IMG/VR virus record: IMGVR_UViG_3300042294_003246
Source: a virus
Taxonomy: Duplodnaviria > Caudoviricetes
Reading direction: 5' to 3' (one strand)
DNA length: 64,000 nucleotides
Shown here: piece by piece, positions 10,456-64,000 of the stretch
How the letters are laid out: each line of letters starts with the position of its first letter
Position numbering within the stretch: the stretch's first letter is position 1
Made by a program: the position numbers and the translations under genes
Notes under the pieces: model-generated
The model's database searches: none
Told to the model about the DNA's origin: nothing
Seen by the model: the letters and a program-made list of their open reading frames with translations, nothing else

Positions 10456-11406
10456 ATGAGTAAAATTGTTGTGAATATATCATCATACAAAAGAAATGAT
10501 GGTTTAGAAAAAGTAATAAATTCGGTAATTGAAGATTGTGACAAAATAAACGTTGCCTTAAATTCTTATGAAGGTGAAATACCAAAATTTCTTTTTGACA
10601 ATAAGATTAATATTTTAATAACTGACAACTCAAAGGGAGATGCTTATAAGTTTTATTTTTTAAATAATACCGAAGATGCTTATTACATTACATTAGACGA
10701 TGATATAATTTACCCTAAAAATTTTATAAAAAAAATCATTCAAAAATGCGACTTTTACGAAAGAAAAAAAGTAATTACTTATCATGGAAGAAATTTTGAA
10801 AATTTCCCTATACAATCATATTACAAATCCAAATCAAAAAGATATCATTTTTTACAAGAGGTCTCGAAAGACACAAAAGTGCAATTTGGAGGAACAGGAT
10901 TGATGTGTTTTCATACCAATTTACTTAAAATACCATTTGAATATTTTATATTTCCAAATATGGCCGATGTTTGGTTAGGAAAATATTGTATGGAAAATAA
11001 AATTGAGATTATTTGTTTGAAACACCTAAAAGGTTATATACAATATATACCACAAAAAACCACAATTTATGATGTAGAATCTAAAAATGATTTTATACAA
11101 ACACAAGTTGTAAATTCTATTTTTAATAAAACGATTAACTTAGAAAATTTAAAAAACTATAATAAAAATAATTCGTTAGAACAAATTCCTAATATATCAA
11201 TTCCGCAACCAACTCCACCACCACATGAACCGGTAAAAATTGAAAAAACTTTAGAAATAAATAAAAAAACAATTGATTACCAAAAAGTTAATAGAATATT
11301 TTCAAATTTACAAAATAATACACAACAAAAACCACAGGTTAATACAAATAATCTGAAACTTAATTCAAAACAAATTTCAACATTTAATAAAAAGAAATTC
11401 AGATGA
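10456..11406 (+). CDS. Glycosyltransferase family 2-like with low-complexity C-terminal tail
   Basis: YYITLDDDIIYP, GGTG, NMADVW; tail ends KKKFR. Confidence 0.75.
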   Translation: MSKIVVNISSYKRNDGLEKVINSVIEDCDKINVALNSYEGEIPKFLFDNKINILITDNSKGDAYKFYFLNNTEDAYYITLDDDIIYPKNFIKKIIQKCDFYERKKVITYHGRNFENFPIQSYYKSKSKRYHFLQEVSKDTKVQFGGTGLMCFHTNLLKIPFEYFIFPNMADVWLGKYCMENKIEIICLKHLKGYIQYIPQKTTIYDVESKNDFIQTQVVNSIFNKTINLENLKNYNKNNSLEQIPNISIPQPTPPPHEPVKIEKTLEINKKTIDYQKVNRIFSNLQNNTQQKPQVNTNNLKLNSKQISTFNKKKFR

Positions 11407-12359
11407 GTTTAAGTGTTATTATACCAACTTATAAAAATGTTATTTTTTTGGATGAACTTTTTTTATCTATAGAAAATAGTAGATATGATAATGAATTTGA
11501 AGTTTTGATTGGAATTGATAATTGTTATGAAACGATCGATTACATTTATAATAAAGAATTTCCAAAAAACTTTAAGTTTTTTTTCTTTTTGGAAAATCAA
11601 GGTCCCTATCTAATTAAAAATACTTTAGTTGAAATAAGTCAGTATAATAAAATTTTGTTCTTTGATTCTGATGATGTTATTCTGCCAAATTTATTTGAGG
11701 AAATTGACAGTCAATTAAACATATATGATTTGATCAAACCAAAATATATTGATTTTGAGGATAAGAACAATCAACGAGAGTTCAAACAACAAAAAAATAC
11801 ATTTGGTGAGGGAGTTTTTGGGATTAAAAAAGACATATTTTTAAGTATTAATGGATTTGAGGGATGGAGAGTTGCCGCAGACTCAGATCTTATGTCTCGA
11901 CTATATAAAATGAATTTAAAAATATTACATACGAATCATATTCTATTTCATAGAAGATTACACAAAAATTCTTTAACAATTCATCCTGAGACAAACTTAT
12001 CATCAAAAATTAGGGCTAAATATTTTTTCATTAGTAAAAATAAACCAAAACATTTTTTAAAATTGGAGGGGCTCAAAACGAGTGAATATAAAGTTGTTGA
12101 TATTGAAAATAAAGAATTTACAAAATCTTTGATTGAGTTAAAAGAAGAACACGAAATAACCGAATATGAGAAAAAAAAGTTGAAACACGAATCTATTTCT
12201 ACGATTTTTTCTAATCAACCAAAAAGAGATATTCCGAAAGAACCAAAAAAAATAAATTATGATGCCATTAACAACAACAGATCGATGTTGTATCATCCTA
12301 ATTTGAACTCTGCCTTAAAAAAGGCAAAACTTGATAATTTGAAAAAAAAATTTAGATAG
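11403..12359 (+). CDS. Glycosyltransferase family 2 with C-terminal tail
   Basis: LSVIIPTY, FFDSDD, AADSDL; tail ends KKKFR. Confidence 0.85.
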   Translation: MSLSVIIPTYKNVIFLDELFLSIENSRYDNEFEVLIGIDNCYETIDYIYNKEFPKNFKFFFFLENQGPYLIKNTLVEISQYNKILFFDSDDVILPNLFEEIDSQLNIYDLIKPKYIDFEDKNNQREFKQQKNTFGEGVFGIKKDIFLSINGFEGWRVAADSDLMSRLYKMNLKILHTNHILFHRRLHKNSLTIHPETNLSSKIRAKYFFISKNKPKHFLKLEGLKTSEYKVVDIENKEFTKSLIELKEEHEITEYEKKKLKHESISTIFSNQPKRDIPKEPKKINYDAINNNRSMLYHPNLNSALKKAKLDNLKKKFR

Positions 12360-57975: not shown

Positions 57976-58089
57976 ATGGAAGACATACATCAACAAATTC
58001 ACGAGGAGTTTATTAACTCTGAAGATTATGATAAGTATCTTTATGATATTTATAATTATGAACCTCAACGAACAGATCCACAGGATTAA
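57976..58089 (+). CDS. Possible small acidic protein (37 aa)
   Basis: Manual translation MEDIHQQIHEEFINSEDYDKYLYDIYNYEPQRTDPQD, preceded by TATTTATA. Confidence 0.35.
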   Translation: MEDIHQQIHEEFINSEDYDKYLYDIYNYEPQRTDPQD

Positions 58090-58528
58090 AAACTTGATGT
58101 ATGAACAACCACAAGTCCAAATTGTATATAAAGGTGATTTAGATGGATACTTTGGAAAAAACATTGAGTTAACGTCTCCTGATAATAATACTATTGGTTT
58201 TATCCATATATCCAAAATGAATGATGGTGAAAATTTAGATCTGAACTTCAATACTTTATATGACGAATCCAAGTTTCAAACCATTCCATTAAATTATGAT
58301 AATTGTCTTTTTATGCACACTTTAGAGGTGGATGAAAACCATAGAAAACAGGGACATGGGTCACACTTATTAGATTTGGCACATGAATTTGCAAAAAATA
58401 ACGGATATAATTATCTATCTTTTATTTCTGATAATGATAATGAAATTGCAAACAACATTTATCAAAAAAGAGGTTATAAGTCATTAAATTCTAATGACAA
58501 TTCTAGTTTTTATTTTGTTGAATTGTAA
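58058..58528 (+). CDS. MNLNEQI-leader GNAT acetyltransferase
   Basis: Start ATG 58058: MNLNEQIHRIKNLMYEQ; LEVDENHRKQGHGSHLL; NEIANNIYQKRGY; TATTTATA at 58047-58054. Confidence 0.8.
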   Translation: MNLNEQIHRIKNLMYEQPQVQIVYKGDLDGYFGKNIELTSPDNNTIGFIHISKMNDGENLDLNFNTLYDESKFQTIPLNYDNCLFMHTLEVDENHRKQGHGSHLLDLAHEFAKNNGYNYLSFISDNDNEIANNIYQKRGYKSLNSNDNSSFYFVEL

Positions 58529-59878: not shown

Positions 59879-59965
59879 GGAAGAGTAATCACAACGGCTT
59901 GTGACTCCGTCTTGAAAACGGCAGGTACTGAAAGGTATGGGGATCGACACCTCACTCTTCCTCCA
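59879..59965 (+). tRNA. tRNA-Ser(UGA), atypical (ATCGACA T-loop, U73, encoded CCA)
   Basis: GGAAGAG/CTCTTCC acceptor, loop CTTGAAA, long variable arm. Confidence 0.75.
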
Positions 59966-60550: not shown

Positions 60551-60627
60551 CGGCACATATACCCTCCGTCTGATACGCGGTTGAAAGGTTAATAGGTCCC
60601 ATGTAGGTTCGATTCCTACTGTGCCGA
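60551..60627 (+). tRNA. tRNA-Ile(GAU)-like, D-armless with extended variable region
   Basis: CGGCACA/TGTGCCG acceptor, perfect T arm, CCGT-CTGATAC-GCGG; only 8 nt where the D arm belongs. Confidence 0.6.
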
Positions 60628-60631
60628 CTAC

Positions 60632-60715
60632 GGAAGATAAACCTTGATGGAGATAGGGTCCGCCTGCTAAGCGAGATGTACCTTCGGGTATTTGGTTCGA
60701 TTCCAATGTCTTCCG
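60632..60715 (+). tRNA. tRNA-Ser(GCU)
   Basis: GGAAGAT/GTCTTCC acceptor, loop CTGCTAA, long variable arm, G73. Confidence 0.8.
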
Positions 60716-61510: not shown

Positions 61511-61966
61511 ATGAACCGAGTATTTAGAAAGGTTGATGGAAATCCAGTTTCTGACATATCAAAACACACTTTGGATATTTTAAATGAATGTCCTTATGTT
61601 GAAATTCATGTTGGAACTGATTCTCAAAACCACAGAAGATCGACTGTATATGTAACCGCAATAGCATATCGGTATGGAAACCGCGGAGTTCACTATATAT
61701 ATCACAAACATAAGGTTAAAAAAATTCGTGATAAGTGGACAAGGTTATGGAATGAAGCCGATTATTCAATTGAGGTTGCAAACTTTTTAACAAGTAAGGT
61801 GAATGTTAAACTTGAGATTGATCTTGATTATAACGCTCAAGAACAACACTTTAGTTCAAAGTTGGTTGGTCCTGCGGTTGGGTGGGTTAATTCTTTGGGT
61901 TATAAGGCGAATATTAAACCTGATAACCAAATTGCAACAAAGGCGGCAGATTTTCATTGTCGTTAA
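61511..61966 (+). CDS. RNase H-like YkuK (DUF458) family protein
   Basis: HVGTDSQ, RLWNEADYSIEVA, EIDLDYN, KAAD; has an AAGGAG Shine-Dalgarno site, rare in this window. Confidence 0.8.
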   Translation: MNRVFRKVDGNPVSDISKHTLDILNECPYVEIHVGTDSQNHRRSTVYVTAIAYRYGNRGVHYIYHKHKVKKIRDKWTRLWNEADYSIEVANFLTSKVNVKLEIDLDYNAQEQHFSSKLVGPAVGWVNSLGYKANIKPDNQIATKAADFHCR

Positions 61967-62048: not shown

Positions 62049-62122
62049 GCCCCTATGGCGGAATTGGCATACGCATGTGATTTAGGATCACAATTTTGCA
62101 GGTTCGAGTCCTGCTGGGGGCA
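62049..62122 (+). tRNA. tRNA-Leu(UAG) with short variable loop
   Basis: GCCCCTA/TGGGGGC acceptor, TGTGA-TTTAGGA-TCACA, 5-nt variable region. Confidence 0.85.
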
Positions 62123-62194
62123 CAAAAAATAGTATATATACTAAATTTTAGATTTTTTCTAAAATAATAACTTTTTGATCTCATATTTATTAAT

Positions 62195-63004: not shown

Positions 63005-63055
63005 AAAATATTTTACAAAGTGTTTGGCAGATCAAAATAATCTACATATATTTGT
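63005..63055 (+). repeat. 51-bp promoter repeat, copy 1
   Basis: Near-identical to 63380-63430; contains TTTG (63023-26)-N20-TATATTTG (63047-54). Confidence 0.8.
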
Positions 63056-63071
63056 AGAAACAATAAAACAT

Positions 63072-63410
63072 ATGGGAACTTACATTTACACTTACAAGAA
63101 AAAATTAGATAAGAAGGCAACTCTTGATGGACAAGAAGTTATTGTTGGTGAAGCTACTTTTTTATGTAAACAAGATTGGTCAGGAAATTACACACCACAA
63201 GAAAAACGTGAAATGACAAGAGCTACATGTTTACTTGAAAACGATCAACCGGATTATATTACATTCGGTGAAGAAGTTTATAAAAATAATAAGCGTGGTA
63301 TTTGGACTGATGGTAGCGGTTTTTGGACCGGAATCGATTACAAAAAAGACTATGTTGGAAAGTTAGAAAAAATTGGTAGAAAATATTTTATAAAGTGTTT
63401 GGCAAATTAA
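63072..63410 (+). CDS. Hypothetical protein
   Basis: Start ATG 63072 behind the host promoter; C-terminus runs through repeat copy 2. Confidence 0.65.
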   Translation: MGTYIYTYKKKLDKKATLDGQEVIVGEATFLCKQDWSGNYTPQEKREMTRATCLLENDQPDYITFGEEVYKNNKRGIWTDGSGFWTGIDYKKDYVGKLEKIGRKYFIKCLAN

Positions 63411-63430
63411 AATAAACTTCTTATATTTGT
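63380..63430 (+). repeat. 51-bp promoter repeat, copy 2
   Basis: TTTG (63398-401)-N20-TATATTTG (63422-29). Confidence 0.8.
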
Positions 63431-63610
63431 CAAACAAACGGGGGTGAGAAAATGTGATGGTGGACTCACCCCCACACAAAAGGAAGAAAGTTCTTTGATT
63501 TAAGATATTGTGGTTGTAAGCAAGGGGAAACTCGTAAAGTTCATTAACCAGTTGGCTCAAGATGGTGAAACGAGAGTGTGAGTCAACTACTAAATCACAA
63601 ATAAAATATT

Positions 63611-63743
63611 GTCAGGTGGGCGTAATGAGGGATGGTACCCGAGTCCCCAAGACCAATAGTCCCCGACACTTGGGGGTTCTATGGAGTCGTAAGGTTGTCT
63701 ATCCCGTCTAGAACGGTATCCGGTTCGAGTCCGGCCCTGACTA
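63611..63743 (+). ncRNA. Expanded tRNA-like RNA 1 (~133 nt)
   Basis: GTCAGG/CCTGAC acceptor-like stem, CCGG-TTCGAGT-CCGG T arm, internal 11-bp helix. Confidence 0.55.
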
Positions 63744-63749
63744 ACAAAC

Positions 63750-63890
63750 AGGCAAATGGCGGAAGAAGAGTTAACCATACTCGTGGCAGACGTTAAGGTA
63801 TATTTCCCGTAAGAAGTTAACCGAGGCATAGCTGGGAATGTCTATTGAAAATAGATCTATGTCGTACAGGTTCGAGTCCTGTTTTGCCTA
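63750..63890 (+). ncRNA. Expanded tRNA-like RNA 2 (~141 nt), GAA anticodon-like loop
   Basis: AGGCAAA/TTTGCCT acceptor, ACAGG-TTCGAGT-CCTGT T arm, GTCTA-TTGAAAA-TAGAT arm, two insertions. Confidence 0.6.
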
Positions 63891-63897
63891 CAAATAT

Positions 63898-63980
63898 CGC
63901 GGGATAGTAAGTAGTTGGTAGCTGGCGAGGCTCATAACCTCGTGTCTTTGACCCCGGTGGTTCGAGCCCACCTCCCGCAA
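63898..63980 (+). tRNA. Initiator tRNA-fMet(CAU) with enlarged variable region
   Basis: C1-A72 mismatch (CGCGGGA/TCCCGCA), CGAGG-CTCATAA-CCTCG, ~13-nt variable region. Confidence 0.8.
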
Positions 63981-64000
63981 CACAATTTGGTTTGGTAGTC

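Follow-up and report, generated by a model that had tools for sequence, protein, structure and literature searches.

What are two RNAs of 134 and 141 nucleotides (nt) that begin and end like tRNAs and lie in tandem within a phage tRNA array? The question is raised by a 64,000-nt stretch of viral DNA (Duplodnaviria; Caudoviricetes; IMG/VR record IMGVR_UViG_3300042294_003246), here called the window, which carries the two elements, RNA1 and RNA2, near its 3' end on the + strand. We find that each has conserved phage relatives with covarying stems and that both are tied to a larger phage family with Leu-like frames, which fits a proposal made earlier from the sequence alone, namely, that these RNAs represent a class of tRNA-mimic noncoding RNA. 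We are confident that this family of tRNA-framed, non-decoding RNAs is real. With less assurance, we lean toward the view that RNA1 and RNA2 are stable RNAs that do not decode and are matured like tRNAs, the frame being a scaffold and the module that it carries possibly a decoy.

Anatomy and relatives of RNA2 and RNA1

RNA2 is organized as follows (all features on the + strand).

63750–63890, + strand: RNA2, 141 nt, on a tRNA-Leu frame; acceptor strands 63750–63756 and 63883–63889, discriminator A at 63890
63759–63793, + strand: D arm of the tRNA-Leu type; stem GCG/CGT, with a hairpin at 63768–63782 within a loop insertion
63797–63863, + strand: middle module, drawn from covariation in relatives and RNAalifold
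63797–63799 with 63820–63822, + strand: helix of the middle module
63804–63808 with 63834–63838, + strand: pseudoknot helix TTCCC/GGGAA, with double changes at 2 pairs
63809–63817, + strand: conserved loop GUAAGAAGU of the middle module
63825–63831 with 63857–63863, + strand: helix (RNA2 positions 76–82:108–114), with a double change at 1 pair
63840–63856, + strand: tip hairpin with a 5-base-pair (bp) arm and the loop UUGAAAA at 63845–63851, with a double change at 1 pair
63866–63882, + strand: T arm, ACAGG, loop TTCGAGT, CCTGT; perfect, and unvarying among relatives

The acceptor is a perfect 7-bp stem (AGGCAAA/TTTGCCT) followed by A, with TG after its 5' strand, and AGTTAACC is present twice, at 63769 and 63815. 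All that the sequence-only reading described for RNA2 (acceptor, TG, D stem with its hairpin, TTCCC/GGGAA, TTGAAAA arm, T arm, and repeat) is indeed found in the sequence. The D and T arms nearly match those of the window's own tRNA-Leu(UAG), which itself has no long variable arm.

Scans with the 3' end and internal motifs of RNA2 gathered 8 distinct sequences from IMG/VR and metagenomes, several of them on phage contigs of 274 to 291 kb; five further metagenome contigs carry an identical RNA2. A search of IMG/VR with the exact 3' end of RNA2 gave no match because the T loop of the relatives has GAAT rather than GAGT. The relatives are 122 to 125 nt long and carry a plain D arm, so the D-loop hairpin of the window is a lineage-specific insertion. 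Measured against different homologues it is 16, 18, or 19 nt long, and such length differences, not all multiples of three, argue against coding. Hairpin inserts at the same site recur in other members of the wider family described below (loci L042, L090, L093, and L112).

The relatives change in a manner that preserves the fold. The acceptor appears as AGGCAAA, AGGCAAG, AGGUAAG, and AGACAAG, and the 3' strand matches in each case; over the whole hand-written structure 97% of cells are paired, with 6 pairs changed on both sides. None of 500 shuffles was as good, and controls in which the structure was slid along the alignment all fell to 34 to 49% paired. Since the covarying helix 55–59:85–89 crosses the covarying helix 76–82:108–114, we read the middle as a pseudoknotted three-way junction; RNAalifold independently gives the acceptor, the D stem, the crossing pseudoknot helix, the hairpin, and the T arm. 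The tip loop UUGAAAA, which equals the anticodon loop of tRNA-Phe, is present in 8 of 8 sequences and was kept in five lineages that were found without fixing it (the window, L127, L129, L138, and L140). The GAA loop that had been pointed out from the sequence is thus conserved, even if one of the search patterns partly imposed it.

RNA1 has a different interior.

63610–63743, + strand: RNA1, 134 nt, long form of type A; acceptor strands 63610–63616 and 63736–63742, discriminator A at 63743
63622–63640, + strand: nearly invariant motif GUAAUGAG, then a small hairpin with a UGG loop (63629–63640)
63645–63694, + strand: expandable hairpin with a CC/GG base in all relatives; the base pair covaries once, from CG to UA
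63704–63716, + strand: extra hairpin CCG-UCUAGAA-CGG, lineage-specific, in 3 of 25 distinct relatives
63719–63735, + strand: T arm, stem CCGG/CCGG, loop TTCGAGT, with a U-C mismatch at the outer pair

Its acceptor GTCAGG/CCTGAC forms 6 bp, or 7 bp with U1 and U72 counted, and position 1:72 is paired in 23 of the 25 relatives (AU in 12, UA in 5, GU in 5, and UG in 1). These 25 distinct sequences come from uncultured phages and fall into short (74 to 84 nt) and long (115 to 134 nt) forms, the gap being an insertion of ~45 nt in the loop of one small hairpin. This expandable hairpin has 4 to 13 nt in the short forms, against ~45 nt in the long ones, to which the 46-nt interior seen in the window (63647–63692, two stacked helices) is confined. 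The inner helices vary with partial compensation, 66 to 68% being paired in an automatic alignment that misaligns the subtypes. Two types occur together within one genome: type A, with a CCGG T stem, stands before RNA2, and type B elsewhere in the array.

In the structure count for RNA1, 93% of cells are paired, with a covariation score of 0.186 versus 0.077 for shuffles. The T stem covaries (CG in 15 and UA in 9 at one pair; CG in 12, AU in 10, and GC in 3 at another), as does the stem of the UGG-loop hairpin, where pair 22:32 is GC in 18 sequences and AU in 7. This hairpin is the D-arm analogue, and its likely partner is the T loop. The motif GUAAUGAG is joined by a second nearly invariant segment, GGUUGC, and neither is placed in a helix. 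What RNA1 has in common with the tRNA-Leu frame is limited to the acceptor stem and the T arm, and GUAAUGAG and the UGG hairpin replace the Leu-type D arm; judged by these features, RNA1 is a separate subfamily of the wider family that we name below after its AGUCAGG acceptor.

The sequence-only reading fared less evenly for RNA1. Its acceptor, its CCG-TCTAGAA-CGG hairpin, and its T arm are borne out, but the outer D-like pairing GGC..GTC has no support in the relatives. The UAG or CUA anticodon suggested for the extra hairpin does not hold either: beyond being rare, the loop of the hairpin reads UGAAAA in L138, against UCUAGAA in L151 and in the window, and no 7-nt loop is conserved across the 25 distinct relatives. 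We therefore consider RNA1 to have no anticodon. Homologues with compensatory changes, which that reading proposed to look for, exist for both RNAs.

Canonical tRNAs, introns, and expression

With default settings ARAGORN calls neither RNA1 nor RNA2, and none when introns of up to 120 nt are allowed; likewise, the Rfam tRNA model (RF00005, gathering score 29 bits) has no match at E ≤ 10 in 63380–64000 except the neighboring tRNA-Met. Standard finders do miss both elements, as had been expected. Lower-threshold ARAGORN calls of Ile(tat) and Tyr(ata) cover only 3' fragments of the elements and were rejected as spurious. Nevertheless, RNA1 and RNA2 are spaced 6 to 7 nt from their neighbors in the array, and their 3' trailer, the discriminator followed by CAAA, is the same as that of the true tRNAs there. 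When acceptor and T arm are compared, RNA2 has 7 bp and a 5-bp T stem, and in RNA1 the acceptor has 6 bp, with U1/U72 in addition, and the T stem has 4 bp and the U-C mismatch; the stems of both parts covary in the relatives of both RNAs. A canonical anticodon arm, with a 5-bp stem and a 7-nt loop containing U33 after the D arm, is absent from both: the UUGAAAA hairpin of RNA2 sits on a 7-bp helix and the pseudoknot, directly before the T arm. Neither ARAGORN, which also searches for transfer-messenger RNA (tmRNA), nor the Rfam tmRNA families detect a tmRNA, and at position 3:70, where tmRNA has G3-U70, RNA2 has a G-C pair and RNA1 a U-A pair.

Could these be tRNA genes interrupted by noncanonical introns, as was also suggested from the sequence, with the inserts cut by a nuclease and the ends resealed by a phage RNA ligase and end-healing enzymes? 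All contiguous deletions of 10 to 99 nt were made in silico, and an ARAGORN call on the native ends was required. Some deletions in RNA2 of the window do give a tRNA-Phe(GAA), which would speak for an intron, but they do so solely when the genuine D arm is removed; the calls are mostly Met in L129 and few in L127, and because of these differences no intron boundary can be regarded as conserved. In RNA1, all single deletions together yield 1 spurious call. Rfam detects no ribozyme or intron in 63380–64000. Moreover, the supposed inserts of RNA2 are its most conserved and most structured parts, including a covarying pseudoknot pairing with the supposed exon. Contigs from four RNA libraries span RNA2 (~63750 to 63890–63902) with 0 differences and no internal joint; the only joint in them corresponds to a strain variant that has no RNA1, although assembled contigs drop rare forms. 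We take these data as a weak hint of expression and weak evidence against splicing, since they are assembled contigs that tell nothing of ends, strand, or abundance and may include DNA. All in all, we consider interrupted tRNA genes extremely unlikely.

RNA1 is covered in RNA-library contigs only in pieces, from variant strains, and coverage stops at 63903; we draw no conclusion from either. Folding energies of the single sequences are no better than those of shuffles (z of -0.9 and -1.05), so single-sequence thermodynamics is uninformative here.

A wider family on the same frame

A pattern of only the T arm and the 3' acceptor strand, scanned over IMG/VR, retrieved at least 155 distinct elements in at least 120 loci, many with 2 to 7 copies; of the 178 matches listed, 161 have the matching 5' strand 60 to 260 nt upstream. 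We delimit this AGUCAGG-frame family by an acceptor (N)GUCAGG/CCUGAC(N) with the T arm GGTTCRARTCC inside a phage tRNA array and, further, by U8-G9, a tRNA-Leu-type D arm (GCGG-AAUUGGUAGA-CGC), and A73. RNA1 has the acceptor and T arm of the family and not the Leu-type features, whereas RNA2 has the latter apart from its D-loop insertion, together with the same T arm and an acceptor (AGGCAAA/UUUGCCU) that is three compensated pairs away from AGUCAGG/CCUGACU. Among the 155 elements listed, U8 is present in 143, A73 in 132, and the Leu-type 5' part (U-G-GYGRA) in 107, and more than 85% of the listed members are tRNA-like in T loop, U8, A73, and D loop. The descent of RNA2 and most members of the wider family from phage tRNA-Leu genes is clear.

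The middles are another matter. They form 141 unrelated clusters among the 155 listed elements, and just 14 of these elements cluster with another, which gives little sign of shared modules. Compared with shuffles, the middles have slightly more structure (mean z -0.7, p 4e-11), and they show no clear excess of anticodon-like loops (25 versus 17.4 ± 4.3). They span ~15 to >150 nt, in members of ~56 to >190 nt. At the lower end, L129:3427–3482 is a 56-nt miniature with a 7-bp acceptor (GUCAAG, not GUCAGG), a GG-loop hairpin, a T-arm-like hairpin, and almost no middle; it resembles minimal tRNA-Leu constructs that are still charged by leucyl-tRNA synthetase (LeuRS).

Family elements sit among true tRNAs, and to some of them ARAGORN assigns arbitrary anticodons, such as Glu(ctc), Ser(aga), and Pro(agg). 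No member was found in 50,697 GenBank phage records, where no place covers 80% of a query; in 52 of these records the match is confined to a stretch of the D arm or T arm, which in most cases falls under an annotated tRNA. A BLAST search of 63400–63900 against GenBank phages likewise gave no match, and a search of IMG/VR for relatives via a neighboring protein of 587 amino acids gave none. Among 185,579 bacterial and archaeal species genomes there were 14 family matches, all in metagenome bins, five of which are labeled Bacteroidota. The wider family is thus phage restricted. Full-text literature searches, with most subscription journals outside their coverage, found no description of it, and both the family's size and its constant frame with variable middles seem to be new.

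The cassette site and its surroundings

The window has a G+C content of ~30%, has nearly every gene on the + strand, and encodes a DNA polymerase as well as tape-measure-like and head-decoration-like genes. Its tRNA array runs from 57.7 kb to the end of the window with 17 ARAGORN calls, true tRNAs being spaced every 70 to 600 nt along the operon. By an exact-protein look-up, genes of the window lie on metagenome contigs from fresh water that reach 259 kb, a 290.7-kb relative has a completeness rating of 97%, and the promoter blocks bear the Bacteroidota-type motif TAnnTTTG; on these grounds the window derives from a giant phage, probably one of Bacteroidota. Around RNA1 and RNA2, we distinguish the following.

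63399–63427, + strand: promoter-like site from a promoter scan (TTGGCA, 17 nt, TATATT), overlapping a TAnnTTTG motif
63440–63473, + strand: G+C-rich hairpin of 9 bp at the start of the leader, seen in the sequence; also ahead of a similar RNA block in L001, L127, and L129
63499–63605, + strand: conserved structured leader of ~107 nt, 92% identical to that of L004; precedes RNA1 or RNA2 in relatives
63898–63981, + strand: tRNA-Met(CAU), 7 nt past RNA2, called by ARAGORN

A scan found no terminator-like site from the promoter through RNA1, RNA2, and tRNA-Met to 64000. The promoter lies in a 51-nt block that is duplicated (63005–63055 and 63380–63430, 88% identical) and flanks an open reading frame (ORF) at 63072–63410 (112 amino acids, no family match); this ORF is absent from the near-identical strains L001 to L003 and looks like a recent cassette insertion. 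The leader, which stands before RNA2 in L127 and L129, has a stem that changes in pairs among relatives (GTTGGCTCA/TGAGTCAAC versus GTTAACACA/TGTGTTAAC). It also holds a short ORF from 63562 (MVKREC...) that stops after 16 to 17 codons in relatives and continues into RNA1 in the window. In most relatives tRNA-Met directly follows RNA2 (L127, L138, L140, L144, L148, and L155), and the order RNA1-RNA2-tRNA-Met is retained in L138, L140, L145, L148, and L155. The tRNA-Met of the window is itself odd: at 84 nt, it combines a C1/A72 mismatch, as bacterial initiator tRNA has, with a D region that is enlarged and a variable region that is long, and it scores 23.4 bits on the Rfam tRNA model, under the cut-off of 29; those of the relatives are 72 to 74 nt long with the same CGCGGG...CCCGCA ends.

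The site of the two RNAs turns over fast, while the elements themselves are kept. Three contigs (L001 to L003) are 99.4 to 99.9% identical to the window up to 62785 and then diverge abruptly: between tRNA-Leu(UAA) and tRNA-Met, where the variable cassettes of near-identical strains sit, ~1.7 kb replaces RNA1 and RNA2. This cassette includes a ~600-nt noncoding stretch, an HNH gene, a tRNA-Phe-like gene whose loop has 8 nt, and two other elements whose ends read GTCAGG...CCTGACTA. In a fourth contig, L004, the leader of the window is followed by a canonical tRNA-Phe, and the RNA1 homologue is elsewhere. The fast turnover is further evident from the RNA-library contigs, where the leader runs straight into an identical RNA2, RNA1 being absent. 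The L001 array contains endonuclease genes of the HNH and DUF559 kinds. The second tRNA-Phe(GAA) gene at the place of RNA2 is thus canonical in L004 (757–831) and has an 8-nt anticodon loop (ACGGAAAC) in L001 (12500–12575); the 8-nt-loop form of L001 to L003 could be a frameshifting tRNA or an inactive variant.

Other unusual elements were noted in these arrays. The ~600-nt stretch of L001 (10886–11520) is gene free and contains a 150-nt element (11277–11426), closed by a 9-bp stem and with a minimum free energy of -40 kcal/mol, which recurs upstream of the leader in other phages, including L129 and L150, and looks like another unannotated structured RNA. A tRNA-Ile(UAU)-like gene is conserved in L004 (1008–1097), L127 (6215–6294), L145, and L138; it lacks a D arm between its acceptor stem and its anticodon stem and carries a D-loop-like string (UAGCGGUAAG) in a long region 3' of the anticodon arm. 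It escapes ARAGORN in L127, L138, and L145, and 60551–60626 of the window shares its design. The tRNA-Leu(UAG) of the window (62049–62123) is 75 nt long and has a Leu-type D arm and a variable region of ~5 nt, that is, a class II identity on a class I body. Two more tRNA-Ser-like genes (59879–59961 and 60632–60714) have perfect acceptors and the T loops ATCGACA and TTCGATT; they get no default ARAGORN call and were found only at a lower threshold. Finally, a GNAT acetyltransferase gene (58028–58528) and a PF04308 "RNaseH_like" gene (61511–61966) lie inside the array. Some GNAT toxins acetylate aminoacyl-tRNAs, and a link between the GNAT gene of the array and the tRNA-like RNAs is conceivable.

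Possible functions and known systems

In the scheme that we favor, RNA1 and RNA2 would be transcribed with the tRNA operon from the promoter at 63399–63427 and excised by host tRNA maturation enzymes. RNase P, the 3'-end enzymes, and the CCA-adding enzyme recognize the acceptor stem, T arm, and elbow, and the features kept in both RNAs (acceptor, T arm, a D element capable of forming the elbow, and trailer) would be the ones read by these enzymes, including those that trim the 3' end. In place of the anticodon and variable arms, each RNA would present a conserved folded module, consisting in RNA1 of the GUAAUGAG motif, the UGG hairpin, and the expandable hairpin and in RNA2 of the pseudoknotted three-way junction, the tip of which would copy the tRNA-Phe anticodon loop. 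The frame would then be a scaffold that serves maturation and stability. For E. coli LeuRS, A73 and contacts of the D and T loops are required and the anticodon and variable arm are not, and E. coli tRNA-Leu variants without these two arms are still charged; the leucine-identity elements are A73, G18-G19 with their T-loop contacts, and A14/A15 in the Leu-type D loop (PMC9976931). The required sequence elements are present in RNA2 and most family members, which keep what bacterial LeuRS needs and may be leucylated. In other words, the conserved part of the family would be the part needed for maturation and, plausibly, leucylation. Neither a CCA-adding enzyme nor a class I synthetase domain is encoded by the 290.7-kb relative, and these steps would therefore fall to enzymes of the host.

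The module, in turn, might be a decoy or sponge for a tRNA-binding host factor, most plausibly a tRNA-cutting defense nuclease or another reader of anticodon loops; decoys, for anticodon nucleases or synthetases, had likewise been among the suggestions made from the sequence, and they fit the evidence. We offer this function tentatively, as a possibility rather than a probability, and prefer it because of the array context, because defense nucleases are known that cut the variable loops of class II tRNAs, with phage tRNAs acting as supplements or decoys (PMC13096335), and because RNA2 carries a tRNA-Phe loop at a site where variant tRNA-Phe genes occur. Extending this idea to the whole family, the constant tRNA-Leu frame might be a natural display scaffold, matured, given CCA, and leucylated by the host without ever decoding, on which the interchangeable middles, those of RNA1 and RNA2 included, would be fast-evolving decoys or inhibitors; this we consider rather unlikely.

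Several observations weigh against these proposals. The acceptor AGUCAGG matches no bacterial tRNA in the genome collection, so a decoy for a factor that reads host acceptors would not work. No antisense target was found in the window beyond chance-level 11- to 12-mers. The relatives of RNA2 are few (8) and close, most variation being from the window's own copy, and three of them came from a pattern that fixed GUAAGAAGU and UUGAAAA, so part of the conservation of this loop is circular. In RNA1, the candidate long-range pairing AUGAG:CUYAU has no compensatory change and some breaks. The contigs from RNA libraries, as assemblies without ends, strand, or abundance, could also stem from carry-over of DNA. 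Lastly, the existence of very short members suggests that the frame alone may be functional and many of the middles weakly constrained expansions.

That last reading is the main rival to a decoy or sponge, if in our view an unlikely one. The frames would be processing signals (compare the t-elements of plant mitochondria), competitors for the enzymes of tRNA maturation or charging, or leucylated carriers for nonribosomal transfer of aminoacyl groups, and most middles would be tolerated expansions. This would account for near-constant frames around 141 unrelated clusters of middles and for members of 56 to 70 nt with almost no middle, and the conserved parts equal the minimal tRNA-Leu that is competent for leucylation (PMC9976931). 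It does not sit well with the middles of RNA1 and RNA2, which are conserved with compensatory changes, and extra processing signals seem unnecessary where true tRNAs already occur every 70 to 600 nt. The GNAT gene in the same array might point to the carrier variant, but this link is positional only, and no aminoacyl-transferase was identified.

Two further explanations are, each to about the same degree, quite unlikely. RNA2 could be a working, if odd, decoder of UUY via its GAA loop, charged by phenylalanyl-tRNA synthetase (through the anticodon and A73) or by LeuRS, and perhaps resistant to a host nuclease that attacks tRNA-Phe. The identity of UUGAAAA with the tRNA-Phe anticodon loop, its retention in five lineages on a covarying stem, and the second tRNA-Phe(GAA)-type gene that takes its place in L004 and L001 are in keeping with this. 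The hairpin, however, is at the place of a class II variable arm, on its 7-bp helix and pseudoknot by the T arm, and not at that of an anticodon arm; a GAA triloop is an equally possible closed form of its loop; a canonical tRNA-Phe is retained in phages that have RNA2; a Leu-charged reader of GAA would mistranslate the phage's own genes; and RNA1 has no conserved loop at all. Alternatively, the elements might be DNA that is selfish or in decay, namely, cassettes derived from tRNAs and spread through recombination or the homing endonucleases of the array, or else dying tRNA genes; either way, the RNA itself would have no function. The wholly different cassettes of near-identical strains between tRNA-Leu(UAA) and tRNA-Met, the occurrence of identical RNA2 with and without RNA1 ahead, and the HNH and DUF559 genes of L001 would suit mobile DNA. 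Compensatory changes, on the other hand, preserve RNA helices and not DNA sites, and decay would erase the T loop, U8, A73, and D loop that stay tRNA-like in most listed members. No target-site duplication or transposase was seen at the junction where RNA1 is present or absent, and mobility and RNA function are in any case compatible.

At present, phage tRNA clusters are mostly interpreted as a means to counter codon bias and tRNA-cutting defenses. The large conserved family described here means that their non-tRNA residents are not curiosities. It has been invisible to annotation tools, and its design rule, a constant tRNA-Leu frame with a variable middle, provides sequence rules by which members can now be found in viromes. 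It also serves as a warning that, in phage annotations, some of the "tRNAs" given odd anticodons belong to the AGUCAGG-frame family. If the proposed function were true, the family would amount to an RNA-level arsenal of counter-defense against tRNA-targeting immunity or other tRNA-binding host factors.

Among known systems, phage class II tRNA-Leu shares with RNA2 and most family members U8, the Leu-type D arm, the T arm, A73, and the location in arrays, but the family differs in having no anticodon arm at the canonical place and in unrelated middles that finders leave uncalled or call with arbitrary anticodons. The tRNA-like domain of tmRNA and the bacterial YrlA RNAs combine a mimic of the acceptor and T arm with a functional domain that is not a tRNA. 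The likeness is in this mimicry, which gives access to tRNA enzymes, next to a separate domain; RNA1 and RNA2, however, have neither the tag reading frame nor the G3-U70 of tmRNA, and the Rfam families of both tmRNA and YrlA show no match to them. Furthermore, the ends of YrlA RNAs lie in the Ro-binding stem and not in an acceptor stem. Engineered tRNA scaffolds and the tRNA-linked small RNAs of murid gammaherpesvirus 68 follow the same design principle, in that a tRNA body confers stability and correct processing on an unrelated RNA module within or beside it, but the former are laboratory constructs and the latter belong to a eukaryotic virus. In the literature searched, we found no natural bacterial or phage counterpart with a module inside the tRNA body.

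By architecture and genomic setting, the closest known object is RNAC of phage T4 (species 1 RNA, rnaC). To our knowledge, RNAC and RNAD have stood unexplained since the 1970s. RNAC is a stable RNA of ~139 nt inside a phage tRNA cluster, beside tRNA genes, and has a canonical T arm followed by a terminal stem of its 5' and 3' ends, with long hairpins in place of the D and anticodon arms. Like RNA1 and RNA2, it is non-decoding and goes unrecognized by the Rfam tRNA model, and rnaC and rnaD have no Rfam family; the function of both is still given as unknown (PMC3014915; PMC9697503). It differs in having no evident sequence similarity, an imperfect terminal stem, and no tRNA-Leu-type D arm, and it is not known to belong to a family in which a constant frame holds interchangeable middles. 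The comparison is one of architecture, and homology seems unlikely. Conceivably, if a tRNA frame does serve phages as a display scaffold, the same principle could also explain the stable RNAs of the T4 tRNA cluster.

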